A DNA stretch of 39,785 nucleotides from Candidatus Parcubacteria bacterium (GTDB taxonomy: Bacteria; Patescibacteriota; Minisyncoccia; Phycocordibacterales; UBA5272). Location of the stretch: positions 1-39,785 of the forward strand of contig JBDKFI010000001.1 in the NCBI GenBank assembly GCA_039798825.1, read 5' to 3'. The number at the start of each line of letters is the position of its first letter. Positions within the stretch are counted from its first letter, which is position 1. This document shows, piece after piece, positions 4,108 through 37,084 of the stretch. A model generated the notes under the pieces. The model saw only the letters and a program-made list of their open reading frames with translations, did not search any database and was not told where the DNA came from. A program made the position numbers and the translations under genes.

Positions 4108-4116
4108 ATCCTACCA
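4108..4116 (-). promoter_or_regulatory. extended -10 box TGGTAGGAT upstream of tRNA-Tyr/folD
   Basis: Reverse complement of 4108-4116 is TGGTAGGAT, 11 nt before the mature tRNA 5' end. Confidence 0.5.
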
Positions 4117-4142
4117 CAAAATCAAAAACCTGTGAATTCACA

Positions 4143-4151
4143 TGGTACACT
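4143..4151 (+). promoter_or_regulatory. extended -10 box TGGTACACT, 7 nt before the msrA ATG (leaderless)
   Basis: TGG at 4143-4145, TACACT at 4146-4151, 7-nt spacer tttcatt, ATG at 4159. There is no SD. Confidence 0.55.
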
Positions 4152-4158
4152 TTTCATT

Positions 4159-4698
4159 ATGATTAGATCACTCATACTTGCAGGCGGTTGTTTCTGGTGC
4201 GTGGAGAATGACCTCCGCGAAGCGCCAGGTGTCGTGTCGGTAACGTCCGGATATTCAGGTGGTGAGTCAACCGACCCGACATACGAAGATCACAGAGGAC
4301 ATCGAGAGGTGGTACTTGTTGAGTATGACGATACAACAACCTCGTATAAAACATTGCTACAATTTTTCATCGATCATATTGATCCAACTGACACGGGCGG
4401 ACAGTTTGCTGATCGAGGAGAAAGCTACAGAACTGCGATCTACTACGAAACTGAGGAAGAAAAGAACATTGCAGAGGGTGTACTGGAAGAATTAGATAGA
4501 AGTGGTGTTTACGAACAATCTCACGCAGTCGATCTTCTACCGAGGAAACAGTTCTATCAAGCAGAGGAGTACCATCAGAAGTACGCAGAAAAGAACCCTT
4601 CACATTACGCAACGTATAGAACTGGAAGTGGTCGAGAAGAGTTTGTGAATCGTACCTGTCAGATTCGCGAAGAAAAGCACATCATCTGGAGTAAATAA
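4159..4698 (+). CDS. msrA: peptide-methionine (S)-S-oxide reductase MsrA
   Basis: 179 aa with GGCFWCVE at the N-terminus (the GCFWG-type active site), then GYSGG and EYHQKY motifs. The start at 4159 avoids overlap with the tRNA and fits the -10 spacing. Confidence 0.9.
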   Translation: MIRSLILAGGCFWCVENDLREAPGVVSVTSGYSGGESTDPTYEDHRGHREVVLVEYDDTTTSYKTLLQFFIDHIDPTDTGGQFADRGESYRTAIYYETEEEKNIAEGVLEELDRSGVYEQSHAVDLLPRKQFYQAEEYHQKYAEKNPSHYATYRTGSGREEFVNRTCQIREEKHIIWSK

Positions 4699-4704
4699 TC
4701 ATCT

Positions 4705-5088
4705 ATGAATATCGAAGAACGTAAAAAAGAATTATCGGACGAAGAAAAACATGTGCTCTTTAATGGTGGTACAGAAGCGCCTTTTACGGGTGAACTTTTA
4801 CATGAGCATAGAAAGGGAAACTTTATGTGTAAGGTGTGTGGTACGCCACTTTTTTCTTCGGACACTAAATTTGATTCAGGTACAGGGTGGCCATCATTTG
4901 ATCAAGCCCTTCCAGGGGCTGTTGAATATGTCGAAGATGCCACGCTTGGCATGGTTCGCACTGAAGTGAGGTGTGCAACATGTCACGCACATCTAGGTCA
5001 TGTTTTTGACGACGGTCCAGGAACAACAGGTAAACGATACTGCATGAACTCAGTGTGCATGGAATTCGCAGAAGATACAGCTGTATAG
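4705..5088 (+). CDS. msrB: peptide-methionine (R)-S-oxide reductase MsrB
   Basis: 127 aa SelR domain with CKVCGTPLF and CATCHAHLGHVFDDGP zinc CxxC pairs, GWPSF, and the RYCMNS catalytic Cys. Confidence 0.92.
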   Translation: MNIEERKKELSDEEKHVLFNGGTEAPFTGELLHEHRKGNFMCKVCGTPLFSSDTKFDSGTGWPSFDQALPGAVEYVEDATLGMVRTEVRCATCHAHLGHVFDDGPGTTGKRYCMNSVCMEFAEDTAV

Positions 5089-5148
5089 TATTTGTTGCTC
5101 GTTTACTATAAACTGGTATCTATTAACGAGTGACTACTAACGATTCTT

Positions 5149-5532
5149 ATGTCATCCATTTTCACAAAAATCATTGCAGGGGAATTGCCAAGCTACAAGA
5201 TTTATGAGGATGAGTATGTTTGTGCGATTCTCGATATTAAACCAATTCAAAAAGGTCATGTGCTTGTGATACCAAAGCAAGAAGTTGATCAACTCTTTGA
5301 GCTTGATGAAAAGATGTTTGACCACATGATGCACCGAGTTCGTTACATGGCGCAAGTGATCAAAGCAAAAACAGGCTGTGCTCGTGTCTGTGTCTTTGTG
5401 GAGGGATACGGTGTGCCACACGTGCACGTTCACCTGGTTCCTACAAATACATCTGAAGAGTTTGATAAGAAGTGGCAGTACGACGCTTCAGAAGAAGAAT
5501 TGAAAGAAATGCAGGCACTGCTTGCTCACTAA
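5149..5532 (+). CDS. HIT (histidine triad) family nucleotide hydrolase
   Basis: 127 aa. N-terminus is IFTKIIAGELPSYKIYEDE and the histidine triad is HVHVHLVP. Confidence 0.9.
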   Translation: MSSIFTKIIAGELPSYKIYEDEYVCAILDIKPIQKGHVLVIPKQEVDQLFELDEKMFDHMMHRVRYMAQVIKAKTGCARVCVFVEGYGVPHVHVHLVPTNTSEEFDKKWQYDASEEELKEMQALLAH

Positions 5533-5799
5533 ATGATGAGTATGACAACGTTTCAAGAAGCTGTGTATCAAGTAGTGAGATCTATCGAAGAAGGGTCACA
5601 CATGACATATAAGGATGTTGCGCATGCTGTCGGTAGACCGGGTGCATCTCGTGCTGTAGGAAGTGCGCTTAAGAAAAACTACGATCCAACCATTCCATGT
5701 CACAGAGTAATACGTAGTGATGGACATGTGGGGCAGTATAATCGAGGAGGTGCAACAAAGAAGCTTGAGATTTTAAAAAGGGAAGGAGCTATACTGTAA
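5533..5799 (+). CDS. MGMT-family protein (O6-alkylguanine-DNA alkyltransferase DNA-binding/active-site domain only)
   Basis: 88 aa with the IPCHRVIRSDGHVGQY (PCHRV active-site) motif and no N-terminal Ogt domain. The start abuts the HIT stop codon. Confidence 0.8.
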   Translation: MMSMTTFQEAVYQVVRSIEEGSHMTYKDVAHAVGRPGASRAVGSALKKNYDPTIPCHRVIRSDGHVGQYNRGGATKKLEILKREGAIL

Positions 5800-5803
5800 C
5801 TAT

Positions 5804-6142
5804 ATGATGTATATTATTATCCGAACGGTATCTGTGCTTGTTACAAGCTACATAACAAAAGTGGGGGTGCCAATTGTATTTGCCTGGCAGACTGGCTGGA
5901 GTGCCTTTGTGTTTGCGGTAGTGCTCGCGATCATGAATCACACGATTAAACCAGCAATCGCAGGCATCACACTCCCTATCACCATACTTACGCTCGGTCT
6001 TTTTTCAGTTGTGGTGAATGGTGCGATGGTGTATCTCGCAGCACTTGTTGTTCCCGGAGCATCTATTCCTTCATTTGTGATGGCGATGGTGTTTGCAACA
6101 GTGCTCACCATGGTGAACTTCGTTCTCCATGCGTTTGAATAA
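5804..6142 (+). CDS. small 4-TM membrane protein, DUF360/phage-holin-4_2-like family
   Basis: 112 aa with the pattern NHTIKPAIAGITLPITILTLGLFSVVVNGAMVYLAALVVPG that is typical of that family. Confidence 0.65.
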   Translation: MMYIIIRTVSVLVTSYITKVGVPIVFAWQTGWSAFVFAVVLAIMNHTIKPAIAGITLPITILTLGLFSVVVNGAMVYLAALVVPGASIPSFVMAMVFATVLTMVNFVLHAFE

Positions 6143-6168
6143 AGTCTAGCTAAAGCATTTTCTCCCAA

Positions 6169-6606
6169 CTATCGTACTCCTAAGCCGGGTTCGTGTTCCT
6201 CGGTTATCTCTTCAACATCTTCCTGAATCTCGTCGATGTCTTCTTGCATTTCTTCCACGTCTTCAGCAATGTCTTCGACATCTTCTGCGATTTCCTCCAC
6301 ATCCTCCGCAATCTCTTCAACATCTTCTTGAATTTCATCGATATCTTTCTCAACGTTTGCAAGCGCGCGTGCTTGGTGGTTGACACTCATTTGAATGAAT
6401 ATTGAGAGGTAAATAGCTTCAAGAGACACAACCGTGGTAAGCACAAGAAGCACTCGTTCTAGATCAGCGCCCAACCACACAAGTAAAAACGCGCCAAAAA
6501 ACGCACACGTATGAAGTATGACCGACCAGATGGACCCAACCCATTTTGTGACAGAAAGGGCCAAGGTTTCCAGATTTTCCACAGGAGAATCAATGGGTTT
6601 TGACAT
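6169..6606 (-). CDS. DUF1003-like 2-TM membrane protein with acidic heptad-repeat tail
   Basis: The TM pair and VVSLEAIYLSIFIQMSVNHQA resemble DUF1003. An ATG at 6606 is preferred over the GTG at 6615 because TGATATAGT sits 7 nt upstream of it. Confidence 0.6.
   Translation of the reverse strand: MSKPIDSPVENLETLALSVTKWVGSIWSVILHTCAFFGAFLLVWLGADLERVLLVLTTVVSLEAIYLSIFIQMSVNHQARALANVEKDIDEIQEDVEEIAEDVEEIAEDVEDIAEDVEEMQEDIDEIQEDVEEITEEHEPGLGVR
6196..6345 (-). repeat. seven tandem 21-nt (7-aa) coding repeats, D[IV][DE][ED][IM][AQT]E
   Basis: Protein residues 91-140 of the long ORF read DIDEIQE DVEEIAE DVEEIAE DVEDIAE DVEEMQE DIDEIQE DVEEITE. Confidence 0.85.
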
Positions 6607-6613
6607 AATTCCC

Positions 6614-6622
6614 ACTATATCA
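6614..6622 (-). promoter_or_regulatory. extended -10 box TGATATAGT, 7 nt before ATG 6606
   Basis: Reverse complement of 6614-6622, followed by spacer gggaatt. Confidence 0.5.
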
Positions 6623-6628
6623 TAGAAG

Positions 6629-6637
6629 TGGTAGAAT
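6629..6637 (+). promoter_or_regulatory. extended -10 box TGGTAGAAT for the 6658 gene
   Basis: It lies 20 nt before ATG 6658 and back-to-back with the divergent -10 at 6614-6622. Confidence 0.45.
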
Positions 6638-6657
6638 TAGGGTGTACCAACATAATC

Positions 6658-7758
6658 ATGGCAACAATCCTATTACTCGTACTGTTCGCGTTAGTGCTCC
6701 CCGTTATTGGAATTGGCGCTCTTGTGTACTTTCTCTTTATAAAACCTACTACCTCTATGGAATCAAAAACAAAAGCAATAGATGTATTCTTGTATGTTGG
6801 GATTTTCATCTCACTTGTAGTTTCTGTTACTAATATCATTTCTATTCTCTTTACTGCTATTGAGCGAAAGTTTACAGATGTTCTCGAAGCAGGAATGTAT
6901 GTGGATGTGTATGGAAGCGATATGCGTATGGCAGTTGCATCACTTATTGTTATCTTTCCTATCTACCTCCTCCTCTCGATGTATGTTTCTCGAGATATTA
7001 AGAAGTTTCTTTATAAGCGAGATCTACTCATTAGAAAGTTGTTCGTCTACACTACGTTGTTTGTGACAGTCTGTACGTTGCTTGGTTCACTGGTAACCAC
7101 TATCTATTACTACTTAGGTGGTGAGCTTACCGTGCGATTCGGTCTTAAGGCACTCACGGTATTTGTCATCGCCGGAGCTGTGTTCGGGTATTACTTCTAC
7201 GCACTTCGTCGTGACTACACAAAGTCAAACGTGGTACCAAATGTGATTGCCGGCATTGCATCACTTCTCGTACTCCTTTCTCTTGTGTGGAGTATCTCGA
7301 TTATTGGCACACCTGCATCTATGCGACTTAACCGTATCGACGATGCACGTCTGTCGGATGTATCGCGACTTCAGCAGGAAATCTTTAATCACTTCCAGAC
7401 TAGTGACAAACTTCCAAGTACACTTGTGGAATTAAATGATGCCTTCCAAGGGTACGCTGTTCCGCAAGACCCTGTTACTGGAGAGAGCTATGTGTACAAA
7501 GTGATTCAGCAACCAGTGGTTCGAAAGAACCTTCAGTCAAATACAAAAGAACTTGTCACACCTGCTGTCTTTGAATTGTGTGCAACCTTTGCAACAAAGC
7601 GTGACTACGATACACGTGGAACACCAGTTCTTTCAGAGAAAATGTACTCAGCTTCGAATTACTACTATTCAGGCGATACGACACCGTTTTGGAATCACGA
7701 AGCGGGGTATACATGTTTTAGACGGGAGATTACGTCTGACATGTACTACGGCCGTTAA
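6658..7758 (+). CDS. multi-pass membrane protein (DUF5671-like) with pilin-like C-terminal domain
   Basis: 366 aa with about six hydrophobic helices. The tail RIDDARLSDVSRLQQEIFNHFQTSDKLPSTL...VPQDPVTGESYVYK resembles the D-x-R-x-x-DL...P-x-DP pseudopilin-type module. The family name is recalled from memory, not searched. Confidence 0.6.
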   Translation: MATILLLVLFALVLPVIGIGALVYFLFIKPTTSMESKTKAIDVFLYVGIFISLVVSVTNIISILFTAIERKFTDVLEAGMYVDVYGSDMRMAVASLIVIFPIYLLLSMYVSRDIKKFLYKRDLLIRKLFVYTTLFVTVCTLLGSLVTTIYYYLGGELTVRFGLKALTVFVIAGAVFGYYFYALRRDYTKSNVVPNVIAGIASLLVLLSLVWSISIIGTPASMRLNRIDDARLSDVSRLQQEIFNHFQTSDKLPSTLVELNDAFQGYAVPQDPVTGESYVYKVIQQPVVRKNLQSNTKELVTPAVFELCATFATKRDYDTRGTPVLSEKMYSASNYYYSGDTTPFWNHEAGYTCFRREITSDMYYGR

Positions 7759-7889: not shown

Positions 7890-7946
7890 AGACAACCAAA
7901 GAGCGACGCCTTAGGCGTCGCTCTTTGGTTGTCTAGTCTTTTCTTG
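7890..7946 (+). terminator. intrinsic terminator, perfect 21-bp stem
   Basis: agacaaccaaagagcgacgcc (7890-7910), tta, ggcgtcgctctttggttgtct (7914-7934), followed by a T-rich tail tagtcttttctt. Confidence 0.7.
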
Positions 7947-7953
7947 GTATTAT
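7945..7953 (+). promoter_or_regulatory. extended -10 box TGGTATTAT, 9 nt before the leuS ATG
   Basis: TGG at 7945-7947, TATTAT at 7948-7953, ATG at 7963. Confidence 0.5.
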
Positions 7954-12021: not shown

Positions 12022-12030
12022 TGCTATACT
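12022..12030 (+). promoter_or_regulatory. extended -10 box TGCTATACT, 7 nt before ATG 12038
   Basis: Spacer ggttcct, no SD. Confidence 0.5.
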
Positions 12031-12037
12031 GGTTCCT

Positions 12038-13534
12038 ATGCAACTTGTTATCGACATTGCTCTCAGTCTTATCTATTTTTGCATCTTTTTACTTGTCTGT
12101 GCATGGGCATGGAGGTTCTGGAAGATGTACATTACGCAGAAACATTTCTCAGGCTTAGATTGGGTAATGCTCGAAATCAAGCTACCTCGAGAGATTTTTA
12201 AATCTCCCTACGCAACAGAAGTTGCTATTTCATCTCTTCTTCAAACTGGAGGTGTAGGAACCTGGTATGCACGAGAAATAAAAGGTGCTATGCCTGTGTT
12301 TGCTTCCCTTGAAATAGCATCAACGGAAGGAATTATCCATTTTTATGTTCGTATTCAGCGTAAATTTAGGCCGCTTGTGGAGTCTAATTTCTATGCACAA
12401 TATCCAGGCATTGAGATTACCGAAGCGCAGGATTATACAAGCGTGCTTCAGTATCACCATTTAACAAAAGATGTCGCGATGTGGGGAGAGTCCTACAAAC
12501 TCGACGCTTCATGGGAGCCTTGGAATTGGGAGAAAGGTGAGCGGTATGTTGACCCTAAAGATAGCAGTAAAAAGTATTCAATGAAGGCAGACTTTTTGCC
12601 TATTAAGACCTATGTGGACTATGGTTTGGATAAAGATCCAAAAGAAGAGTTTAAAATAGAGCCACTTGCTCCACTTCTTGAAACGATGGGGTCGCTTGGT
12701 AAAGGTGAGCATCTATGGTATCAAGTCCTTCTTCAATCAGAAGCCCTCTATAACGGCACCAAGATGCCAAAGATGTATCACAATGAAGTCACACATGAGG
12801 CGATGAGTTTGTCTAAAATGGTGGAGGAATTTAAAAAGTCCATTCGAGTCGAAGGGTTTACTCCTGCTGGCCAAATGATTACAGAAAAGATCGACATTGA
12901 CGAAAATGGCAATCCAGTTCCTAAGAAGGTGCTTAACGAAGAACCGATTGTGAAGACGAAAAAGGAGATGGATTTGAGCACAGACGATAAAGACAAACTT
13001 GAGTCGATTAACAAGAAGCTTGCTAAACCGATTGCTTCTGCCATCATACGACTCATGTATGTTGTCGATAAAAACAAAGCCTCGTTTAATCCAGCACTAA
13101 TACAAAACATACTCGCTTTCCCAAAACCATTTGAAGGAAGGTTTAATAAACTCACCATGGGTAAAACAAGTGATCCGTATGAGTACCCATGGGAGAACTT
13201 TCGCAATCGTCGTGTACCGTGGAGGTCTGAGGAGTTCTTTGAGGCGTATGTTGAGCGGGAAGGATTCTTTCCACATATAGAGGGTCGCGATTCTCTCGAC
13301 AAACTTGAAGATACTTTCTTCTGGGGATTCAGTATGAAAACACGAAAGACATGGCGTATGCTCTTTGAGGCCATTATGTTTCCATTCCATCACCCACATG
13401 CGGACGAAATCACCGCTCTTAACATGGAAGAGGTTGCAACCATTTGGCATCTTCCTGGTGCTATTATTACTACACCGACACTTCCTCGAATTGATAGTGC
13501 GAAAGCTGTTGCGCCGGTTAACCTCCCACAGTAG
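12038..13534 (+). CDS. conserved-looking hypothetical protein, N-terminal membrane anchor
   Basis: 498 aa with one N-terminal TM helix followed by a WVMLEIKLPREIFKSPYATEVAISSLLQ segment. No nucleotide-binding motif was seen. It ends 5 nt before mltG. Confidence 0.7.
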   Translation: MQLVIDIALSLIYFCIFLLVCAWAWRFWKMYITQKHFSGLDWVMLEIKLPREIFKSPYATEVAISSLLQTGGVGTWYAREIKGAMPVFASLEIASTEGIIHFYVRIQRKFRPLVESNFYAQYPGIEITEAQDYTSVLQYHHLTKDVAMWGESYKLDASWEPWNWEKGERYVDPKDSSKKYSMKADFLPIKTYVDYGLDKDPKEEFKIEPLAPLLETMGSLGKGEHLWYQVLLQSEALYNGTKMPKMYHNEVTHEAMSLSKMVEEFKKSIRVEGFTPAGQMITEKIDIDENGNPVPKKVLNEEPIVKTKKEMDLSTDDKDKLESINKKLAKPIASAIIRLMYVVDKNKASFNPALIQNILAFPKPFEGRFNKLTMGKTSDPYEYPWENFRNRRVPWRSEEFFEAYVEREGFFPHIEGRDSLDKLEDTFFWGFSMKTRKTWRMLFEAIMFPFHHPHADEITALNMEEVATIWHLPGAIITTPTLPRIDSAKAVAPVNLPQ

Positions 13535-15162: not shown

Positions 15163-15171
15163 TGGTAGATT
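15163..15171 (+). promoter_or_regulatory. extended -10 box TGGTAGATT directly before the mnmA start
   Basis: ATG codons at 15175 and 15178 lie 3 and 6 nt downstream, so the second ATG may be the real leaderless start. Confidence 0.45.
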
Positions 15172-15174
15172 TCT

Positions 15175-16284
15175 ATGATGAACGCAAGAAAAGCAAAAGT
15201 TTTTGTCGGTATGTCAGGCGGGGTGGACTCGTCTGTTTCCGCAGCACTGCTTAAAGAACAGGGGTACGATGTGACCGGTGTATTCATCAAGGTATGGCAA
15301 CCGGATTTTATCGAATGTACCTGGAAAGAAGACAGACTTGATGCGATGCGTGTAGCTGCACAGCTTGGTATTCCTTTTGTCACACTTGATTTGGAACAAG
15401 AATACAAGCAAGGAGTGATCGACTACATGATCGAAGAGTACAAAGCTGGGCGTACACCAAACCCAGATGTGATGTGTAATCGCGAGGTGAAGTTCGGGGC
15501 GTTTTGGAAGTGGGCACAGGAGCAGGGTGCGAACTATATCGCAACTGGGCACTATGCTCAGGTAGAGACGACAGACAATAGACAGGAGACAGTAGATATT
15601 ACGCCTGTGGCGTCGAAGCGGGGGTTTAATCTTGTTACAAGTAAAGATGACAACAAAGATCAAACCTATTTTCTTTGGACGCTCACAGAAAATGATCTTG
15701 CACACGTTCTTTTTCCGATTGGTCACATGACAAAGGAAGAGGTGAGAAAGGAGGCCCACAAAAGAAATTTATATACAAGTACAAAAAAAGATAGTCAGGG
15801 GTTATGCTTCGTAGGCTCTATTGATCTCAAAACACTCTTGAAAGAGTACATCAAAGAAGATCGTGGAGAAGTTGTGAATGAAGAAGGTGTTGTGGTAGGA
15901 ACACATGATGGTGTCATGTTCTATACAATTGGTGAGCGACATGGATTTACTGTCACCAGAAGGGGCACTAACGACGCCGCGTACTATGTCATCGGGAAAG
16001 ACTTGAACAACAACAAGCTTGTCGTGTCACACACCCGACCGGCTACCGAAAAAAGTCACCGGATTCTACTTGAATCTGTTAGTTTTGTACATGACGTACC
16101 ACAAGAAGGCATACTCTACGAGGCTCGCGGCAGGTATCGTGCACCACTTGCAAAGGTATCCATGCAACAAGATGCAGATGGTTGGACTGCTACTGTCGTG
16201 GAGGGTGAACTTATCTATACATCAGGACAATCTCTTGTGATCTATGATGGTATACGTTGCTTGGGTGGCGGAATTATGAAGTAA
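15175..16284 (+). CDS. mnmA: tRNA-specific 2-thiouridylase MnmA
   Basis: PP-loop VGMSGGVDSSV, then GRTPNPDVMCNREVKF, ATGHYA and KDQTYFL. Confidence 0.93.
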   Translation: MMNARKAKVFVGMSGGVDSSVSAALLKEQGYDVTGVFIKVWQPDFIECTWKEDRLDAMRVAAQLGIPFVTLDLEQEYKQGVIDYMIEEYKAGRTPNPDVMCNREVKFGAFWKWAQEQGANYIATGHYAQVETTDNRQETVDITPVASKRGFNLVTSKDDNKDQTYFLWTLTENDLAHVLFPIGHMTKEEVRKEAHKRNLYTSTKKDSQGLCFVGSIDLKTLLKEYIKEDRGEVVNEEGVVVGTHDGVMFYTIGERHGFTVTRRGTNDAAYYVIGKDLNNNKLVVSHTRPATEKSHRILLESVSFVHDVPQEGILYEARGRYRAPLAKVSMQQDADGWTATVVEGELIYTSGQSLVIYDGIRCLGGGIMK

Positions 16285-17029: not shown

Positions 17030-17038
17030 TGATAGACT
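17030..17038 (+). promoter_or_regulatory. extended -10 box TGATAGACT, 6 nt before ATG 17045
   Basis: Spacer ccatat, no SD. Confidence 0.5.
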
Positions 17039-17044
17039 CCATAT

Positions 17045-17473
17045 ATGGCAATGTACTCCCGAGATGATCTGGTTGTCCTTCTTAAGGAAGCTAATTTGCG
17101 CGTGACAGACCACCGTCTTTTGGTGCTCGAAACTGTTGCAAAAGTAAAGCAACCAGCTACCGTGTATGAATTGGTAGAAACTCTCCGTAAAAAAGAAAAC
17201 ATCGATCAAGCAACCGTCTATCGTAATCTCTCCTCGCTCCACGAAGCAGGTCTTCTTCGGAGGCTTGATTTTAACCATGGCCATGCACACTATGAACTTG
17301 AAACAGGTCGTGCATCTCATCAGCTTGTATGTGGCAACTGTGAGACGATAGAAAAGATAGAGGGTATCTCGATTGATGACGTGGTAAAGAAAATGCTCAA
17401 GAAGAGTAAGAAATTTAAACACACAACGACACATTCTATGGAGATCTACGGTCTCTGCAAATCGTGCGCATAA
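17045..17473 (+). CDS. Fur-family metalloregulator (Zur or PerR type, not resolved)
   Basis: 142 aa with a winged helix (VTDHRLLVLE..ATVYRNLSSLHEAGLL), HGHAHYEL, and two CxxC pairs (CGNC, CKSC). Confidence 0.88.
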   Translation: MAMYSRDDLVVLLKEANLRVTDHRLLVLETVAKVKQPATVYELVETLRKKENIDQATVYRNLSSLHEAGLLRRLDFNHGHAHYELETGRASHQLVCGNCETIEKIEGISIDDVVKKMLKKSKKFKHTTTHSMEIYGLCKSCA

Positions 17474-20785: not shown

Positions 20786-20794
20786 TGATAGAAT
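20786..20794 (+). promoter_or_regulatory. extended -10 box TGATAGAAT, 9 nt before the atpB ATG
   Basis: TGA at 20786-20788, TAGAAT at 20789-20794, ATG at 20804. Confidence 0.5.
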
Positions 20795-20803
20795 TGTCGA
20801 ATT

Positions 20804-21646
20804 ATGCACGAGGAAGAAGTATCACACGGGGGAGAATCTACAAGTATTTTCCACGTTCAGGAAGAAACGCCGACAATTGTCGCCCCTCTCTTGGGTGATG
20901 TCGGTCCATTTGCGATCGCAACGTCAACAACAACAGTTGCGCTCATTACGGTGCTTTTCGTCGCTCTTGTGTGGAAGGTTTCGAAGTCGAGTCTTCTTCC
21001 TTCAAAGTTTCAAACAGCAATGGAACTTTTTTATGAGGCTATCGCTTCGTTTGTGACATCTATCGTTGGAAGTGAAGAGAGGGCAAAAACCATCATTCCG
21101 TACGTGGGAGCGCTTATGACGTACCTATTGGTTGCAAATCTTCTCCCAATGATACCGGGTATAGCAAGTTTCTATGTGTCGCTGCCATCTGGTGAACATG
21201 TACCGCTTTTTCGTGGCACTACCACTGATTTCAATACGACATTTGGTCTTGCACTTGCGGTTGTGGTTACTATGCAAATTGTAGGCATGCGCCAGCAGGG
21301 AGTATTTGGGTATCTTTCACATTTTATACAAATTAAGCAGGTGTGGAAGGGTTTCAGAAAGTCATTTGGCGACGGGGCTGTTTCAATTATTGGGTTTTTC
21401 GTTGGTCTCATTGAAATTATTTCTGAAATTGCAAAAGTGCTATCACTTAGCTTGCGATTGTTTGGAAACATGTTCGCTCACGAAGTGCTCACGGTTATTT
21501 TGCTCGGTGCGTTTGCGTTTGCTGTACCAGCGGTGTGGATGGGTATGGGGCTTCTGGTGGGGGTTGTGCAATCCATTGTGTTTGTGGCGCTCGTCACTGT
21601 GTATTACTCGCTTGTATTGAAGAAGGAAGGGAAAGATACTCACTAA
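20804..21646 (+). CDS. atpB: F0F1 ATP synthase subunit a
   Basis: 280 aa. LSLSLRLFGNMFAHEVL carries the essential Arg motif, and the protein has multiple TM helices. Confidence 0.9.
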   Translation: MHEEEVSHGGESTSIFHVQEETPTIVAPLLGDVGPFAIATSTTTVALITVLFVALVWKVSKSSLLPSKFQTAMELFYEAIASFVTSIVGSEERAKTIIPYVGALMTYLLVANLLPMIPGIASFYVSLPSGEHVPLFRGTTTDFNTTFGLALAVVVTMQIVGMRQQGVFGYLSHFIQIKQVWKGFRKSFGDGAVSIIGFFVGLIEIISEIAKVLSLSLRLFGNMFAHEVLTVILLGAFAFAVPAVWMGMGLLVGVVQSIVFVALVTVYYSLVLKKEGKDTH

Positions 21647-28106: not shown

Positions 28107-28886
28107 TTACCGTGGGAAGAAAATGGCAAACACGATGATACCGACTATGATGCGATAGAATCCGAACGCGACAAACGTATGTTTGCGAACATAGTCCAAG
28201 AATAGTTTGATGACAAAGGTGGCGATCACAAATGAGGTGACCATACCAACTGCGAGCGTCGAAAGATTGCCCGTTTGAAGCACAACATCTGCATGTTTGT
28301 ATATCGAATAGAGCGTGGCGGCTGACATGGTTGGAACCGCAAGGAGAAATGTGAATTCTGTGAGCATCGATCGGTCTAATTTCATAAGTAATCCTCCAAC
28401 AATGACAGAGCCAGAACGAGATACACCCGGGATCATGGCAAGTACTTGATAGAGTCCAAGGAGAAATGCTTGCTTCACGGAAACATCGTGATGTAGTTTC
28501 GTTTCTCCGTTTTGCTGTGCTTTGTAGTAGCTGTTTTCAACGAAGAGGATGATGATTCCACCAACAAACAATGACACACCAACGATAAGAGGACTTGTGA
28601 GAAGTGCTTTTAAGTGTGGATAGATCACAAACCCGGCGATGCCGGTTGGGATAAATGCAACTGCGAGGCGCTTGATCATCGGAGCGGTGAAGATGCGTTT
28701 CCAGTACATGTAGAGCACTGCACCTATTGCACCGAGTTGAATTGCAACTTCAAATGCTATCAAGAAATCTGTCTGAGCGATCTTTAGTATGTGTGACGCA
28801 AGGATGAGGTGTCCTGTAGAAGAAATTGGGAGGAATTCAGTGAGTCCTTCGATGATACCGAGGTAGAGTGCTTGAATAATGTTCAT
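28107..28886 (-). CDS. uppP: undecaprenyl-diphosphate phosphatase UppP (BacA)
   Basis: 259 aa from MNIIQALYLGIIEGLTEFLPISSTGHL, with PGVSRSG and eight TM helices. The start at 28886 fits the TGGTATGAT box 6 nt upstream. Confidence 0.9.
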   Translation of the reverse strand: MNIIQALYLGIIEGLTEFLPISSTGHLILASHILKIAQTDFLIAFEVAIQLGAIGAVLYMYWKRIFTAPMIKRLAVAFIPTGIAGFVIYPHLKALLTSPLIVGVSLFVGGIIILFVENSYYKAQQNGETKLHHDVSVKQAFLLGLYQVLAMIPGVSRSGSVIVGGLLMKLDRSMLTEFTFLLAVPTMSAATLYSIYKHADVVLQTGNLSTLAVGMVTSFVIATFVIKLFLDYVRKHTFVAFGFYRIIVGIIVFAIFFPR

Positions 28887-28892
28887 GAAATA

Positions 28893-28901
28893 ATCATACC
28901 A
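28893..28901 (-). promoter_or_regulatory. extended -10 box TGGTATGAT, 6 nt before the uppP ATG
   Basis: Reverse complement of 28893-28901. Confidence 0.5.
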
Positions 28902-28912
28902 CAGCAGGTGTG

Positions 28913-28921
28913 TGGTATTCT
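28913..28921 (+). promoter_or_regulatory. extended -10 box TGGTATTCT, 6 nt before the PAP2 ATG 28928
   Basis: TGG at 28913-28915, TATTCT at 28916-28921, spacer tcatac. Confidence 0.5.
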
Positions 28922-28927
28922 TCATAC

Positions 28928-29389
28928 ATGCATTTCGTTATTCTTTTTTGTGCTATCGTGCTTATCTTTGTCGCCATCCTCTTTGCTTTCTTTCGTGTCC
29001 TTGTGCGACACGAAAAGAAGCATCACCTGAGACATATTGTGATGCTTGCGGGCACCTCTCTTGGTTCGTGGTACGCGGCGTTTTTTCTTAAGAATGTGTT
29101 GCTACTCCCACGGCCTGACGCTACACATGCATTGTTTCATCCACTTGCTATGTATAGTCATGGACTACCGTCGGGTCATGCTGCGTTTATGTTTGCACTT
29201 GCTTCGACGATGCACTTTTTCGATAAACGCGCAGGGAAACTCTTGTACATACTTGCATTCATAACAGGCGTGGCACGCATCCTCGCAGGGGTGCATTTTT
29301 GGTATGACATCGTTGCAGGAGCTCTGCTTGGTATCACTGTTTCGTTTGTGGTGGTGACGCTCTGCAATCGTTTGATTGTGAGGAGGTAG
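28928..29389 (+). CDS. PAP2-superfamily (BcrC/PgpB-like) lipid phosphatase
   Basis: 153 aa with the PAP2 signature pieces LPRPD, PSGHAAF and ARILAGVHFWYDIVAGA. Confidence 0.85.
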   Translation: MHFVILFCAIVLIFVAILFAFFRVLVRHEKKHHLRHIVMLAGTSLGSWYAAFFLKNVLLLPRPDATHALFHPLAMYSHGLPSGHAAFMFALASTMHFFDKRAGKLLYILAFITGVARILAGVHFWYDIVAGALLGITVSFVVVTLCNRLIVRR

Positions 29390-29720: not shown

Positions 29721-29813
29721 CATAGTGTATTCACCAGTATTTTTCTATCTACATGCTACACTTTTTGGTATGAGTATAGGTTTCTCTCTTCCTCAATCTT
29801 TTTCTTGCTCTCT

Positions 29814-32042
29814 ATGAAGCTCTCATACATCACCCTTCAAGGATTCAAATCCTTCGCCAAGAAAACAACACTTGATGTCACTCACAGTCTGACGGGTGTT
29901 GTTGGTCCAAACGGTTCTGGTAAATCTAACGTCGCAGAAGCGATACGTTTTGTGCTTGGTGAACAATCTATGAAGTCCATGCGTGGAAAGATAGGCGCTG
30001 ATGTCATTTTCAAGGGCTCTGAGCATCTCTCACCGCTTTCTCGTGCATCTGTGGTGATGGTGATCGACAACAAAGATAAAGGAGATGTTTCGCACGCTTC
30101 TGAAACCCTTGCGCCATACCTTGTGTACGACGAGCTCACACTTGCTCGTACGATCTATTCTGACGGTACAAGCGATTATCTTTTAAATGATGCAAAGATA
30201 CGTCTGAAGGATGTTCAGGAACTGCTTTCGTTTGCTGGTATTGGAGGAAGTGCACACACCATCATCAATCAAGGTGAGGCAGATAGGATACTGCTTGCGT
30301 CTCCGAAGGATCGCAAAGAAGCGCTTGAAGATGCGCTCGGTCTTCGTATTTTCCATCTTCGTCTAGGAGAGAGTAAACGCAAACTCGAACGTGTAAAAGT
30401 ACATGTGCATGAAGTTGAACTTCTGCGCAAAGAAATCAAACCTCATTTGGATCATTTGAAACGACAGGTGGATAAAATCGCTTCGCAAGAAGAAGAGAGA
30501 AAGAAGCTCCATGCGCTTTTAGTTGCGTATCTCAAGCGTGAAGAGGCGGAACTAACAGAGCTTCACGATCGTATACGTGAACAGGGAACATCGGCTTCAC
30601 TTCTCCTTATTGCTGATTCAATCAAAAAAGAAGTGCATCTTCTGAAGGAGTCACATACGGACGGGTCTACGGTATCTCTCCAAGAAAAACAAACGGCACA
30701 AGCCGAAATGCGCGGACTACTCGAGAGGCGAGATCAGATTGCAAAGACGCTTGGTCGTCTGGAGGCCGAGAAAGCATACTTACAAAAAGAGCTCCACAAA
30801 GAAGAAGATGGCAAAGCTATAACCCTTGATGGAGATGTGTGGAATAGTGCACATACTGCGATTTCATATGGTATCGAGAACATTTCATCCGCGCTCACCA
30901 TTTCAGATGTTTCTCAAGCTCAGATACATGTAGAGACTTTGAAAGAATCGACAGACTCTTTCTTTGGCGCTCATCGTACACGCGAAGACGGACGCAAAGC
31001 ATCCATGGTGTCGGATATTGCTACTATTGACACAGCTATTGTGGAGTACGAAGCGAAAGAAAAGTCTATTTCATCTGAGATGGTAATGCTACAGGATCGC
31101 ATCGATGCTTTTGATACAACAGCACAAGCAACACTTGCGTCTAAGTATGAGGAGGAAAAGAAAGTGATGATGCTTGAGAGTAAGTACCGTGAACTACAGA
31201 GCTCAATTGCGCTGCGTCTCCAAGAAGAAGAAGGGTATACACTTCGTAAAAACCATTTTGACGCATTACTGCAAGAAGGGGTGCTTGTTGTTGGTCGAGA
31301 AGTGCTCGAATACAAAGCACACAGCACAGATGATAGGTATACCGATACACCAAAACAAGATCTCCTGCGTGCTATTGAGCGCTCTAAGCTTCGCATAGAA
31401 GAAGCTGGTGTACCGAATCGAGAAGAAGTCATTTCTGAATACAATACGACACGAGAGCGTGATGAATACCTTACACAAGAGCTTGCTGACATCAAACAAA
31501 GCGAAGAGAAACTGCTTGCACTTATCGTTGACCTTGAGACGACGTTACAAACTCGTTTTGCAGAAGGGGTGAAAGAGGTATCGAAGATTTTCAGTGAATT
31601 TTTTGGAGAAGTGTTTATCGGAGGAAAGGGCAAGCTTTCTGTTGTTGAAATCGTAAAAGTAGATGAAGAAGGAAATCAGATTACCGAGCACGGTATCGAC
31701 ATTGATGTGTCGCTTCCAAACAAGAAAGTGAAAGAGATCAGCATGTTCTCAGGCGGTGAGCGTGCGCTTGTATCTATCGCACTCCTCTTTGCGATGTCTT
31801 CGATCACACCACCACCATTTATGGTGCTCGATGAAACAGATGCACCACTTGATGAAGCAAATGCACGAAAGTATGGTGTCATGCTCAAGCGACTAGCAGA
31901 GAAAAGCAAATTACTCGTGATCACCCACAATCGCGAAACGATGAATCATTGCGATATGCTCTATGGAGTGACGATTGGAGTAGATGGATCATCCAAGCTC
32001 CTTTCGATAGATTTCAAAGAAGCAGAAGCGTTAGCGCAATAA
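29814..32042 (+). CDS. smc: SMC-family chromosome-condensation ATPase, short form (742 aa)
   Basis: The N-terminus is MKLSYITLQGFKSF..GPNGSGKSN (Walker A). The C-terminus has the signature FSGGERALVSIALLFA and Walker B FMVLDETDAPLD, with long coiled-coil text between. The upstream part of the track ORF crosses a terminator. Confidence 0.85.
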   Translation: MKLSYITLQGFKSFAKKTTLDVTHSLTGVVGPNGSGKSNVAEAIRFVLGEQSMKSMRGKIGADVIFKGSEHLSPLSRASVVMVIDNKDKGDVSHASETLAPYLVYDELTLARTIYSDGTSDYLLNDAKIRLKDVQELLSFAGIGGSAHTIINQGEADRILLASPKDRKEALEDALGLRIFHLRLGESKRKLERVKVHVHEVELLRKEIKPHLDHLKRQVDKIASQEEERKKLHALLVAYLKREEAELTELHDRIREQGTSASLLLIADSIKKEVHLLKESHTDGSTVSLQEKQTAQAEMRGLLERRDQIAKTLGRLEAEKAYLQKELHKEEDGKAITLDGDVWNSAHTAISYGIENISSALTISDVSQAQIHVETLKESTDSFFGAHRTREDGRKASMVSDIATIDTAIVEYEAKEKSISSEMVMLQDRIDAFDTTAQATLASKYEEEKKVMMLESKYRELQSSIALRLQEEEGYTLRKNHFDALLQEGVLVVGREVLEYKAHSTDDRYTDTPKQDLLRAIERSKLRIEEAGVPNREEVISEYNTTRERDEYLTQELADIKQSEEKLLALIVDLETTLQTRFAEGVKEVSKIFSEFFGEVFIGGKGKLSVVEIVKVDEEGNQITEHGIDIDVSLPNKKVKEISMFSGGERALVSIALLFAMSSITPPPFMVLDETDAPLDEANARKYGVMLKRLAEKSKLLVITHNRETMNHCDMLYGVTIGVDGSSKLLSIDFKEAEALAQ

Positions 32043-32548: not shown

Positions 32549-32557
32549 TGGTATAGT
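32549..32557 (+). promoter_or_regulatory. extended -10 box TGGTATAGT, 11 nt before the rnr ATG
   Basis: TGG at 32549-32551, TATAGT at 32552-32557, ATG at 32569. Confidence 0.5.
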
Positions 32558-32568
32558 TAAAAGAATAT

Positions 32569-34503
32569 ATGGAACGAATCTTTACTGGGCAAATTAGCAT
32601 CACTTCGAAGAAGGATGGCTATGTGCGCGTAGACGCACTCGAGCACGATGGTGCTATTTTTATTGACCACAGTCACCTCGGAACTGCACTTCATCATGAC
32701 ATTGTTGAAGTAGAACTTCTTGGGAAGAAAGATAACGCAAAGGGTGAAAAAGAATTGTATGGAAAAGTAACCGCAATTGTTGAACGTGGAAGAAAAGGCT
32801 ATGCGGGAGTGATAGAAGAAGATAATGGTATGTTTTTTCTTGTTCCTGATGACAAGAGAATGTATACGGATATCATGATCGCCCAGGATGGCTTAAACGG
32901 TGCTTCTGTAGGAATGAAGGTAATAGCAACTATTGATCTCTGGAAGGATCCAAAAAAATCTCCAATTGGAGTTGTCTCAAAAGTGCTCGGACATCCTGGA
33001 GATAATGATGCAGAAATGCTGGCATATGCGCTTGAGCGTGGGTTTAGCGACGAGCACAACGATGCGGTCAACAAAGAAGCAAACGACATCAAGCAACGGA
33101 GTATCACGGAAGAAGATAAAGCGAACCGAAGAGACTTCCGCACAACGCCTACCTTTACGATTGATCCAATAGACGCAAAGGACTTCGACGACGCTATCTC
33201 GTTTAAGAAACTAGACAATGGACACTACGAGGTCGGTATCCACATCGCAGATGTGTCGTACTATGTGCGTCCAGGGATGGCACTTGATGATGAAGCGATA
33301 GCGCGTGAGACATCGGTATACCTCGTGGATCGTGTGATACCCATGCTTCCTGAGGTGCTTTCAAATGATCTCTGCTCGCTTGTGCAAGGTGAGGACAGAC
33401 TCGTCATGTCTGCGGTGTTTGAACTAGATGATGAAGGAGTGGTTCATGGTGAATGGTATGGTCGTTCGATCATCAACTCCCATCGTAGGTATTCATATGA
33501 GGATGCGCAAACGACACTCGACACAAAGCAGGGTGACTTCTATGAGGAGTTGAACATTTTAAATACGATTGCAAAAAAGATGCAACAAGTGCGTTTCGCA
33601 TCTGGCGCGCTTGTGCTTGAAACAGAGGAAGTGAAGTTTAAATTAGACGAAAAGGGTGTACCAATCGATGTGTATGTGAAAGAACGAGGAGACACACATA
33701 AATTGATCGAGGAATACATGCTTCTTGCGAACAAGTATGTGAGCAAGTTCATCACGGAAGTGCAGGAAAAGAAAAACGGACGCTCGATTTGTGTGTATCG
33801 TATTCACGACAAACCAGACGCGGACAAGATGCATGATTTGGATCTGTACATACGAAGTCTTGGGTTTAAGGTTCGCTTCATCGACGGTCTTATCCCATCG
33901 CAAGACTTGAATGATCTTTTGGCAAAAATGGGAGATAGACCAGAAAAGCAGTTGCTCCAGGTGCATATCACGCGATCCATGGCAAAGGCTATCTATAGTA
34001 CGAAAAATGTTGGACACTATGGACTTGGGTTTGAATACTATTCTCACTTCACGTCTCCAATTCGTCGTTATCCAGACGTGCTTACTCATCGGCTACTCAT
34101 GCGAGTGCTAGGAGAGGATTATCCAAAAGAAGAAGAACGAGGACTGTTTGATTCATTGTGTGCAAAAGCCTCACGCCGAGAAAAAGAAGCGTCCGATGCG
34201 GAGCGTGGATCGATTAAGTATAAACAGGTGGAGTACATGTCGTATCGTATCGGACAAGAGTTCGATGGTATTGTCTCGGGTGTTTCTGAGTGGGGTATTT
34301 ATGTGGAAGAAAAGAAAAGTAAATGTGAAGGTATGATACGACTTCGTGACCTTGGAGATGATTTCTATAACTACGATCAAAAAGGTGGACGAGTGTTCGG
34401 TGAGCGATCAGGTGTTGAGTGGAAGATAGGAACGCCAGTGAAAATTAAGGTGAAGAATGCGAACTTGGATTTGCGAGTCATCGACTACGTTCTTCTTGCG
34501 TAG
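32569..34503 (+). CDS. rnr: ribonuclease R (RNB-family 3'-5' exoribonuclease)
   Basis: 644 aa with N-terminal cold-shock-like OB folds, RNB motifs TIDPIDAKDFDDAIS and HFTSPIRRYPDVLTHR, and a C-terminal S1 domain (EFDGIVSGVSEWGIYVEE). Confidence 0.93.
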   Translation: MERIFTGQISITSKKDGYVRVDALEHDGAIFIDHSHLGTALHHDIVEVELLGKKDNAKGEKELYGKVTAIVERGRKGYAGVIEEDNGMFFLVPDDKRMYTDIMIAQDGLNGASVGMKVIATIDLWKDPKKSPIGVVSKVLGHPGDNDAEMLAYALERGFSDEHNDAVNKEANDIKQRSITEEDKANRRDFRTTPTFTIDPIDAKDFDDAISFKKLDNGHYEVGIHIADVSYYVRPGMALDDEAIARETSVYLVDRVIPMLPEVLSNDLCSLVQGEDRLVMSAVFELDDEGVVHGEWYGRSIINSHRRYSYEDAQTTLDTKQGDFYEELNILNTIAKKMQQVRFASGALVLETEEVKFKLDEKGVPIDVYVKERGDTHKLIEEYMLLANKYVSKFITEVQEKKNGRSICVYRIHDKPDADKMHDLDLYIRSLGFKVRFIDGLIPSQDLNDLLAKMGDRPEKQLLQVHITRSMAKAIYSTKNVGHYGLGFEYYSHFTSPIRRYPDVLTHRLLMRVLGEDYPKEEERGLFDSLCAKASRREKEASDAERGSIKYKQVEYMSYRIGQEFDGIVSGVSEWGIYVEEKKSKCEGMIRLRDLGDDFYNYDQKGGRVFGERSGVEWKIGTPVKIKVKNANLDLRVIDYVLLA

Positions 34504-34532
34504 TTTGATGCTTTTTGAAAATGAATCTTCCG

Positions 34533-34541
34533 TGGTAGAAT
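34533..34541 (+). promoter_or_regulatory. extended -10 box TGGTAGAAT for the orphan gene 34611
   Basis: It lies 69 nt before the ATG, and the leader ends with AAGGGAG. Confidence 0.4.
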
Positions 34542-34610
34542 AGAGTTCTAGAGAGTAGTGCGCTTGGTACTATTCAATAATCTCTCGTTAAAAAGAAAGG
34601 GAGCGTGAAA

Positions 34611-34961
34611 ATGAAACGCGATCTTGAGCTTTGTTACCCGCAAGAAGTGCAGCAGAACGTAGGGTACTTGCTCCAACTCGACAGAGGAAGGTACATGGTT
34701 CGATTGACTGGTGGAACAGTCATCTATGAGGCCACAGATTGGTCTGTGACACAGGAACAAGATCATGTGGTGGTGGTCTTGCATGATGCACATGTCATGG
34801 ATTCCCAAGGGCGTCGTTTCGTGACCGAGATGACTCGGGTTAGCCGGACACCACACATCCCCATCTACATGGGGAAGAAAATGAGTGTGTTGTGGAGTGG
34901 CGGTGGGTACTATGTCCCTCTGCCGCGAGCATGCTCACTCCTCTTCCTTCTGTGTGCGTAA
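34611..34961 (+). CDS. orphan hypothetical protein (116 aa)
   Basis: The GGGAG core of AAGGGAG ends 8 nt before ATG 34611 and a terminator follows the stop. The sequence begins MKRDLELCYPQEVQQNVGYLLQLDRGRYMV.. and has a hydrophobic C-terminus LLFLLCA. Confidence 0.5.
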   Translation: MKRDLELCYPQEVQQNVGYLLQLDRGRYMVRLTGGTVIYEATDWSVTQEQDHVVVVLHDAHVMDSQGRRFVTEMTRVSRTPHIPIYMGKKMSVLWSGGGYYVPLPRACSLLFLLCA

Positions 34962-34964
34962 CGA

Positions 34965-34992
34965 AAGCCTCCCTGCGGGGGCTTTTCTTTTT
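34965..34992 (+). terminator. intrinsic terminator
   Basis: aagcctccc, tgc, gggggctt, followed by ttctttttc. Confidence 0.65.
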
Positions 34993-35002
34993 CGTATGTT
35001 TA

Positions 35003-35011
35003 TGGTAGAAT
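35003..35011 (+). promoter_or_regulatory. extended -10 box TGGTAGAAT, 7 nt before the rpsP ATG 35019
   Basis: Spacer gggggac. The ORF-track start at 35010 would lie inside the -10 box. Confidence 0.55.
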
Positions 35012-35018
35012 GGGGGAC

Positions 35019-35321
35019 ATGTTAAAAATCAGACTACAACGTACAGGACGCAAGAACGACCCACATTTTCGTCTTATCGTCACTGAAAGCACGCTTAAGC
35101 CAAAGACTTCACAGTTTGCAGAAATTGTAGGAACCTACAACGTAAAAGCTGGTATCTTTGAAGCGAAAGCTGACCGTATCAAGCACTGGATGTCCAATGG
35201 CGCGCAAGTGACACCAACAGTACACAACCTCCTCATTTCAAAGGGAGTGCTCGAAGGAAAGAAGCTTAACGTACTTCCAAAGAAGACAGTTCAAGCAAAG
35301 AAGGAAGCGAAAGCTGCATAA
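35019..35321 (+). CDS. rpsP: 30S ribosomal protein S16
   Basis: MLKIRLQRTGRKNDPHFRLIV is the canonical S16 N-terminus; the protein is 100 aa. Confidence 0.93.
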   Translation: MLKIRLQRTGRKNDPHFRLIVTESTLKPKTSQFAEIVGTYNVKAGIFEAKADRIKHWMSNGAQVTPTVHNLLISKGVLEGKKLNVLPKKTVQAKKEAKAA

Positions 35322-35795: not shown

Positions 35796-35825
35796 GAAAG
35801 TCGCCCTTCCGGGCGACTTTCTTTA
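35796..35825 (+). terminator. intrinsic terminator
   Basis: gaaagtcgccc, ttcc, gggcgactttc, ttt. Confidence 0.75.
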
Positions 35826-35866
35826 AGTAAAGAATGGAACAGGACATTGATAATATGACTACATTT

Positions 35867-35875
35867 TGTTATACT
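35867..35875 (+). promoter_or_regulatory. extended -10 box TGTTATACT, 7 nt before the trmD ATG
   Basis: Spacer gtcaagt, ATG at 35883. Confidence 0.55.
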
Positions 35876-35882
35876 GTCAAGT

Positions 35883-36578
35883 ATGAGATATCACGTTGTG
35901 ACGATCTTTCCCAATATGTTCGACTCGTACTTTGCGGAGTCGATTATTTCTCGTGCAATTGAAGATAAACTGATCGACATCTACACCTACGCGCTTCGTG
36001 ACTACACGACGGACAAACACAGACGTGTGGATGGCAAACCATACGGAGGTGGACCAGGTATGGTCATGTGGGTGGATCCTATTCTTAATTGCGTTGAAGC
36101 AATTAAGAAGAAGCAAGAAACACGAGATAAGAAGCGAGGAGAAACATCAAAGACACTTGTGGTTATTTTTAATGCTGGTGGACAGAAGTTCACCAACACG
36201 CTTGCTCAAAAATCTGCGAAAGGATACACCGACATTATTTTTATCTGTGGCAGGTATGAAGGTATTGACTCTCGTGTGAAGAAGATTTTGAAAGCCAAGG
36301 AATGGAGTATCGGTGAATATGTCTTAACAGGTGGAGAGCTTCCTGCGATGGTCTGTATCGATGCGATTTCACGCCAAATCAAAGGCGTGCTCAATGACGA
36401 ACTCTCGCTTGAAGAAAAGCGTATTGCAAGTCACGAGATCTACGCCCGCCCTGAAGTGTACGAACATGCTGGCAAAAAGTACCGCGTTCCGAAAGTGCTT
36501 CTTTCAGGCAATCATAAATTGATCGACGAGTATCGCGCAAAGAAAGAGAATACGATAGGGAAAAAGAAAGAGAAGTAA
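35883..36578 (+). CDS. trmD: tRNA (guanine37-N1)-methyltransferase TrmD
   Basis: 231 aa with VVTIFPNMF, DDKPYGGGPGMVM-type (VDGKPYGGGPGMVM), CGRYEGIDSRV and IGEYVLTGGELPAMV. Confidence 0.93.
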   Translation: MRYHVVTIFPNMFDSYFAESIISRAIEDKLIDIYTYALRDYTTDKHRRVDGKPYGGGPGMVMWVDPILNCVEAIKKKQETRDKKRGETSKTLVVIFNAGGQKFTNTLAQKSAKGYTDIIFICGRYEGIDSRVKKILKAKEWSIGEYVLTGGELPAMVCIDAISRQIKGVLNDELSLEEKRIASHEIYARPEVYEHAGKKYRVPKVLLSGNHKLIDEYRAKKENTIGKKKEK

Positions 36579-36609
36579 TTAGTTTTATCTATCAACCATA
36601 ACGATCAGC

Positions 36610-36822
36610 ATGTATCTAAAACTCAAAGTCATCCCAGACTCCAAGCAGGAGAACATCGAGCAGCTCAAAGATGATGAGTATCGTATATGGGTGAAAGCGC
36701 CCGCAGAAAACAACAGAGCAAACGAACGTGTGCTTGAAATCATGCGAGACATGTTTAAAGAGAAGCGTATACGTCTCGTTTCAGGACACACGAGTCCGTC
36801 GAAGATTGTTTCTGTGGACTAG
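36610..36822 (+). CDS. DUF167 (YggU/UPF0235) family protein
   Basis: 70 aa. The pattern is WVKAPAENNRANERVLEIMRDMF....IRLVSGHTSPSKIVSV. Confidence 0.75.
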   Translation: MYLKLKVIPDSKQENIEQLKDDEYRIWVKAPAENNRANERVLEIMRDMFKEKRIRLVSGHTSPSKIVSVD

Positions 36823-36835
36823 ATAATACTTAGTA

Positions 36836-36911
36836 TGGAGCCAGAGGCGAGGATCGAACTCGCGACCTCTTCGTTACGAGTGAAGTGCTCTACCAACTGA
36901 GCTACTCTGGC
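36836..36911 (-). tRNA. tRNA-Thr (anticodon CGT), CCA encoded
   Basis: The reverse complement reads GCCAGAG TA GCTC AGTTGGTA GAGC A CTTCA CTCGTAA CGAAG AGGTC GCGAG TTCGATC CTCGC CTCTGGC T CCA. Confidence 0.9.
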
Positions 36912-36929
36912 AAAAGATCGTTGATCTTG

Positions 36930-37002
36930 AGCCGTTGGCCAGAATCGAACTGGCGACCTTTTCCTTACCATGGAAATGCTCTACCGACTGAGCTACAACG
37001 GC
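36930..37002 (-). tRNA. tRNA-Thr (anticodon GGT), CCA not encoded
   Basis: The reverse complement reads GCCGTTG TA GCTC AGTCGGTA GAGC A TTTCC ATGGTAA GGAAA AGGTC GCCAG TTCGATT CTGGC CAACGGC T, followed by CAA. Confidence 0.9.
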
Positions 37003-37075
37003 GTATATACGTACACAGTCGCCCTATTCTAACGAATTTGTCTTATAATTTCAATGTAAAGTAATGTCTTTCTCT

Positions 37076-37084
37076 TGGTATACT
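37076..37084 (+). promoter_or_regulatory. extended -10 box TGGTATACT, 8 nt before ATG 37093
   Basis: TGG at 37076-37078 and TATACT at 37079-37084. Confidence 0.5.

Follow-up and report, generated by a model that had tools for sequence, protein, structure and literature searches.

The DNA analysed here (the window) is a 39,785-nucleotide (nt) stretch, positions 1 to 39,785 of the forward strand of contig JBDKFI010000001.1, from Candidatus Parcubacteria bacterium (GCA_039798825.1). Upstream of the start codons of genes including rpsP, trmD, atpB, uppP and mnmA it carries a box of the form TGnTAnnnT, placed so close to the ATG that we consider it quite likely that extended -10 promoters direct transcription to begin on the AUG or no more than a few bases from it, giving rise to leaderless mRNAs. 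Both where transcription actually starts and how ribosomes load are deduced here from the DNA sequence. An earlier note on this DNA had proposed leaderless initiation as the default mode; the in-silico tests described below support such initiation, but for only roughly half of the operon-first genes.

Placement of the box before start codons

The window corresponds to contig C1 of an assembly of 510,816 bp (36 contigs, 45% GC, 84.8% completeness). By its LeuRS relatives it falls within Patescibacteria (CPR), alongside metagenome-assembled genomes that carry the labels Parcubacteria, Paceibacterota or Nomurabacteria. TGnTAnnnT is not in excess in the window, where 72 occurrences were found and 78 are expected by chance, and the signal therefore lies in its placement. 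Counting TGnTAnnnT-Nx-ATG on both strands of the whole genome, independently of annotation, gave 62 matches for a spacer of x=6 and 38 for x=7, compared with about 17 at other spacings and a range of 7-28 over x=12-30. Measured to the starts of the longest open reading frames (ORFs), the gap showed a sharp peak at 6 nt (35 genes), followed by 9 nt (9) and 7 nt (8), with hardly any elsewhere, and a box was located at 5-10 nt from 13% of first starts versus 0.46% of in-frame start codons deep inside genes. When any candidate start within 120 nt was allowed, 93 of 421 genes (22%) had an early candidate start preceded by the strict box at 5-10 nt, versus 0.4% of decoys (in-gene start codons), a 55-fold difference. 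The relaxed form of the box, bare TAnnnT, was present at 52% of genes versus 17% of decoys, and on this count roughly 40% of genes (about 42% after decoy correction) are affected. The spacers of 106 box/start pairs were led by 6 nt (46 pairs), 7 nt (19), 9 nt (13) and 8 nt (11). The box had been described as lying 6-9 nt from the start; the genome-wide distance histogram is indeed not flat, but it has a clear peak at 6-7 nt and is not even across 6-9 nt.

Such a peak might arise as an artefact of base composition or of ORF definition, with a TAG or TAA in the box acting as an in-frame stop, and 31 of the 106 boxes do contain TAA or TAG, while a gap of 6 or 9 nt preserves the reading frame of the start. 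However, the ATG spacing peak persists in the annotation-free count, gaps of 7-8 nt are enriched despite being out of frame, the in-frame gaps of 3 and 12 nt show no enrichment, and the decoys stay at 0.4%, so that we regard an artefact as extremely improbable.

The box as a probable promoter

The 106 boxes next to starts share the consensus TGnTATACT, and the 35 nt upstream of them are flat in composition. A TTGACA-like hexamer (at least 4/6) at 17 bp was detected in only 11 of 97 cases, compared with about 4-5 at other offsets, in agreement with the earlier note, which had seen no -35 element. The boxes thus show what characterises the extended -10 class, a TGn abutting TAnnnT with a weak or absent -35 element, and the primary sigma factor (473 amino acids) possesses all of regions 1.1, 1.2, 2, 3 and 4. 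The strict box was found at 4 of 90 genes located less than 16 nt behind a same-strand neighbour, and of the 255 genes that have a divergent neighbour or a gap of more than 40 nt, 139 carry the box or TAnnnT. A box was also present within 60 nt upstream of 11 of 25 tRNA genes, against about 1.4 expected from motif density, in all 11 cases at a distance of 11-46 nt and in none at 6-9 nt. Since tRNA genes are not translated, this indicates that the box is not a translation signal.

The starts adjoining a box are ATG in 98 of 106 cases (92%), and 72-95% of them have a pyrimidine at position -1, which is the Y(-1)R(+1) preference of transcription start sites. In 49 bacteria transcription start sites cluster around a point 7 bp downstream of the -10 element (PMC12641261), and with this geometry the A of the ATG falls on the usual +1 when the gap is 6 nt. 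The assignment of the boxes as putative -35-independent extended -10 promoters is thus supported.

Start codons and conservation in same-genus genomes

All 12 box/start pairs listed previously were recovered at the claimed coordinates with the claimed spacers when the sequence was rechecked. Six of the 12 starts are shorter than the longest-ORF start, and the box-adjacent ATGs were compared with the coordinates of NCBIfam and Pfam profiles. Residue 2 of RpsP read from 35019 aligns with position 1 of the S16 profile, residue 1 of TrmD from 35883 with position 1 of the TrmD profile, residues 1-2 of UppP from 28886 with positions 1-5 of the UppP profile, residue 5 of MsrA from 4159 with position 3 of the MsrA profile, and residue 2-8 of MnmA with position 1 of the MnmA profile. 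The shortened starts that had been preferred to the longest ORF therefore fit the family profiles at rpsP, uppP and msrA, and the alternative TTG-4075 start of msrA is also disfavoured because the longer ORF would overlap tRNA-Tyr.

To compare orthologues, two same-genus genomes with contigs syntenic to the window (G016 and G017) were used. At the orthologues the gap sequence drifts while box and spacing are kept. For rpsP, both genomes retain the box at 7 nt with a different gap sequence; for uppP, the box is kept with spacers of 6 and 9 nt. In mnmA the box lies at 6 nt in G016 and 7 nt in G017, which favours the start at 15178 over that at 15175. In G016 the box is also kept at PAP2 and gene 12038 (6 nt each), trmD (7 nt), the 6606 gene (8 nt), the Fur gene (9 nt), atpB and rnr (10 nt each), as well as at tRNA-Tyr.

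Gap length thus varies among orthologues, and the 9-11-nt gaps (leuS, atpB, rnr and, in G016, Fur) would leave 2-5 nt before the AUG; both observations favour an alternative in which the boxes are promoters but the mRNAs are short-leadered, or translation begins at a later codon. We consider this unlikely, as the dominant gap is exactly 6-7 nt, the -1 pyrimidine beside the A is consistent with the ATG being selected as the start site, and the family profiles begin at the box-adjacent ATG. With leaderless mRNAs as the preferred reading, leaders of about 2-5 nt would be found in the N9-N11 cases, among which the rnr mRNA probably has a leader of ~5 nt.

Translation signals and the ribosome

No Shine-Dalgarno (SD) enrichment was observed upstream of starts: GGAG/GAGG occurs at 5.9% of starts versus 8.8% of internal codons, with a depletion of G upstream of starts. 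The box-less genes likewise showed no SD enrichment, with an SD-type motif at 14.4% versus 12.3% in decoys. The 16S rRNA of four same-genus genomes ends in GGATTAATTCAATG, where the E. coli counterpart is GGATCACCTCCTTA, and lacks CCTCC; five 16S genes from the same order lack it as well. Ribosomal protein uL1 (rplA) was not found in the source genome or in four 100%-complete relatives, while it is present in 14 of 14 control genomes, and bS21 was not found in the source genome, its family or the complete relatives. IF3 is present, as is a short bS1 of four domains. The bS21 model was also unmatched in the control genomes Thermus, Deinococcus, Corynebacterium and Thermotoga; all of these but Thermotoga come from leaderless-rich phyla, which parallels the bS21-less lineage studied here.

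Among tight operon-internal genes, 43 of 171 start 0-10 nt past the upstream stop, with a mode of 4-7 nt and few overlaps, and these short gaps suggest that operon-internal genes are presumably translated by re-initiation or coupling.

The altered 16S tail of the congeners, together with the position of the motif where an SD sequence would usually lie, could suggest that TGnTAnnnT is a translation-initiation element, that is, a replacement ribosome-binding site pairing with this tail. Against this, the motif lies upstream of the 11 tRNA genes noted above, is missing at operon-internal genes, where translation signals are needed too, and is not complementary to the 16S tail, making such a role very improbable. 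New SD pairing with the altered tail in general was considered as well and rejected, as tail-complementary k-mers gave no clean enrichment and were confounded by TAA.

Extent across Patescibacteria

The signal was compared among genomes by means of a replacement index, in which in-register (N6/7) counts are divided by off-register (N16/17) counts; a reversed-pattern control had been rejected as a null because non-CPR genomes (those outside the candidate phyla radiation, CPR) give 1.3-2.4 fold with it. The index was 2.5 (100/40) for the source genome, 1.6-4.4 for near relatives and 3-6 for some other CPR lineages (G212, G258, G226, G135, G286, G068 and G199). Four of five non-CPR genomes gave 0.9-1.2, and the fifth gave 2.15 on only 43 and 20 matches. 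Families f32, f116, f45 and f43 yielded 0.55-0.9, which suggests that their promoters sit further from the ATG. Comparison of 80 leuS loci revealed many metagenome-assembled CPR genomes with a box 6-8 nt before the ATG, and Chloroflexi orthologues with a GGAG-type SD.

CCTCC was located after the conserved AAGTCGTAACAAGG in 13 of 15 testable high-signal CPR genomes (e.g. G212, G135, G199, G227, G286, G226 and G125) and in 24 of 25 testable low-signal genomes, counts from which no statistical conclusion was drawn since related genomes are not independent. The 13 high-signal genomes with CCTCC rule out a strict coupling of the leaderless signal to loss of the anti-SD. The leaderless-type grammar is thus widespread yet not universal in the phylum, and extends beyond the anti-SD-less lineages.

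Proposed mechanism and exceptions

We propose that the housekeeping sigma factor would read -35-independent, TG-extended -10 promoters of consensus TGnTATACT, whose box ends 6-7 nt (sometimes 8-9 nt) before the ATG, and that RNA polymerase would start on the A of the AUG or no more than 1-3 nt away from it, producing a leaderless mRNA. Translation of these mRNAs would be driven by recognition of the 5'-terminal AUG with no SD pairing, and downstream genes of operons would be reached by re-initiation or coupling, mostly 0-10 nt past the preceding stop. The share of genes affected would range from about a quarter (strict box) to two-fifths (any TAnnnT), and would be about half among operon-first genes.

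It is possible, and we put this forward tentatively, that the genus, and probably the order, translates without any SD/anti-SD pairing, with initiation on 5'-terminal AUGs at operon-first genes and re-initiation across short gaps at the genes downstream. Because CPR genomes with a retained CCUCC show the leaderless grammar as well, this grammar would be older and wider in Patescibacteria than the loss of the anti-SD, and may have relaxed selection on the anti-SD and thereby allowed its loss.

Several observations weigh against the proposal. Three genes are evidently leadered: smc, whose ATG at 29814 (MKLSYITLQGFKSF) has its nearest box 51 nt away; rpoD, encoding the housekeeping sigma factor itself, with a 15-nt gap between box TGGTATAAT and the ATG (contig C6, L144 833-850); and the gene at 10907, with a box-to-start gap of 21 nt. 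The smc gene probably starts at this ATG and not at GTG 29658 of the longest ORF, and its putative leader of ~45 nt is pyrimidine-rich without an SD (window 29754-29816). In G016 the box arrangement of msrA is not kept, nor is that of leuS, where the gap is 13 nt. AGGAG-N6-ATG occurs 42 times genome-wide versus ~21 at other spacings, amounting to ~20 extra loci, most of which precede small ORFs of 53-68% GC; they constitute a minor SD-like class for which the lineage has no obvious reader, which would be odd without an anti-SD. Moreover, the loss of the anti-SD in the source genome is extrapolated from its congeners, its own 16S lying outside the assembly, and the gene calls were home-made and crude (433 ORFs covering 82% of bases).

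One of these loci is a self-contained cassette with an SD-type motif, located between PAP2 and smc (window 29425-29716, plus strand). It comprises, in order, a box TGGTAGGAT, a leader of ~42 nt, AGGAGG 6 nt before ATG 29476 and a 62-amino-acid ORF of 60% GC, followed by a GC-rich hairpin and a T-run. The cassette is SD-led although the congeners lack an anti-SD.

Features in the window

The box/start pairs of the window are compiled in Table 1, including rnr, which was absent from the earlier list. The name DUF1003 given previously to the 6606 gene proved wrong, as the profile search returned only weak SLATT and DUF948 matches; the remaining gene names were confirmed by NCBIfam/Pfam profiles. 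Gene 12038-13534 had no family match in the same NCBIfam/Pfam search.

Table 1. Boxes and the starts that they adjoin (window coordinates)
Gene	Strand	Box	Box position	Gap (nt)	Start	Feature
tRNA-Tyr (putative promoter)	-	TGGTAGGAT	4108-4116	11	tRNA 5' end 4096	4097..4116
msrA	+	TGGTACACT	4143-4151	7	ATG 4159	4143..4161
gene 6169-6606	-	TGATATAGT	6614-6622	7	ATG 6606	6604..6622
leuS	+	TGGTATTAT	7945-7953	9	ATG 7963	7945..7965
gene 12038-13534	+	TGCTATACT	12022-12030	7	ATG 12038	12022..12040
mnmA	+	TGGTAGATT	15163-15171	3 or 6	ATG 15175 or 15178	15163..15180
Fur-family regulator	+	TGATAGACT	17030-17038	6	ATG 17045	17030..17047
atpB	+	TGATAGAAT	20786-20794	9	ATG 20804	20786..20806
uppP	-		28893-28901	6	ATG 28886	28884..28930 (with PAP2)
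PAP2	+		28913-28921	6	ATG 28928	28884..28930 (with uppP)
rnr (RNase R/II)	+	TGGTATAGT		11	ATG 32569	32549..32571
rpsP	+	TGGTAGAAT	35003-35011	7	ATG 35019	35003..35021
trmD	+	TGTTATACT	35867-35875	7	ATG 35883	35867..35885
capA-like (PGA_cap)	+	TGGTATACT	37076-37084	8	ATG 37093	37076..37095

The leaderless-type promoters of uppP and PAP2 stand back to back in a 41-nt divergent gap. Similarly, the promoters of tRNA-Tyr (minus strand) and msrA (plus strand) are back to back within 44 nt (window 4097-4161); the longest msrA ORF (from TTG 4075) and a 311-amino-acid minus-strand ORF (to 4098) both overlap tRNA-Tyr, and the starts of both are probably mis-called. The gene on 6604-7758 has a box TGGTAGAAT 20 nt upstream of an in-frame ATG at 6658 (window 6629-6660), and in its G016 orthologue 6 nt separate the box from the equivalent ATG, which implies that the spacing has shifted between the congeners. 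The 500-nt gap between rnr and rpsP (window 34504-35002) contains a perfect box TGGTAGAAT at 34533-34541, near which neither an ATG nor a convincing ORF was found. No Rfam family matched this gap (34.5-35.0 kb), even at E up to 1, and it may hold a candidate small RNA.

Comparison with known systems

Leaderless-rich bacteria are an established category, and loss of the anti-SD in Parcubacteria has already been published. A literature search of partial coverage returned no paper linking CPR, Patescibacteria, Parcubacteria or TM7x to leaderless mRNAs. In genomes of this type, many starts would be misplaced by gene finders that rely on SD sites or default to the longest ORF, and genetic tools for CPR organisms would need leaderless expression cassettes; the lineage would also offer a natural bacterial system for the study of SD-independent initiation.

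The closest category is group C of GeneMarkS-2, to which 1028 of 4769 bacteria were assigned, mainly Actinobacteria and Deinococcus-Thermus, and which has a Pribnow-type box 6-8 nt before operon-first starts, with ~25-50% of transcripts predicted to be leaderless (PMC6028130). Two marks of that group, a -10 motif ~6-8 nt upstream and its presence at a sizeable share (at least ~25%) of operons with a concentration on first genes, were both found here; AUG is likewise dominant, and bS21 is missing as in the control genomes Thermus, Deinococcus and Corynebacterium. The present case differs in its phylum, Patescibacteria, and in its TG-extended promoters with a TATACT-like hexamer. Moreover, the other genes of group C genomes use SD sites, whereas here SD enrichment is absent and the congeners have no anti-SD.

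On the ribosome side, a subgroup of Parcubacteria without anti-SD and uL1 was described by Tsurumaki et al. (RNA 2022, PMC9297842), and the lineage studied here resembles it in being parcubacterial, in having congener 16S rRNA without CCTCC, and in that neither uL1 nor bS21 was found. That study reports the rRNA and protein losses and describes no promoter-abutting starts or leaderless mRNAs; the promoter layout supplies, at the level of function, a counterpart to what has been published on Parcubacteria losing anti-SD, uL1 and bS21.

On the promoter side, the boxes resemble E. coli promoters of the extended -10 (TGn) type and the mycobacterial minimal promoters, -10 + G(-14/-13) (cited in PMC12641261), with the TG one base upstream of the hexamer, no need for a -35 element and sigma region 3 present. 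In contrast to those bacteria, in which such promoters are a minority, they apparently form the dominant promoter class here.

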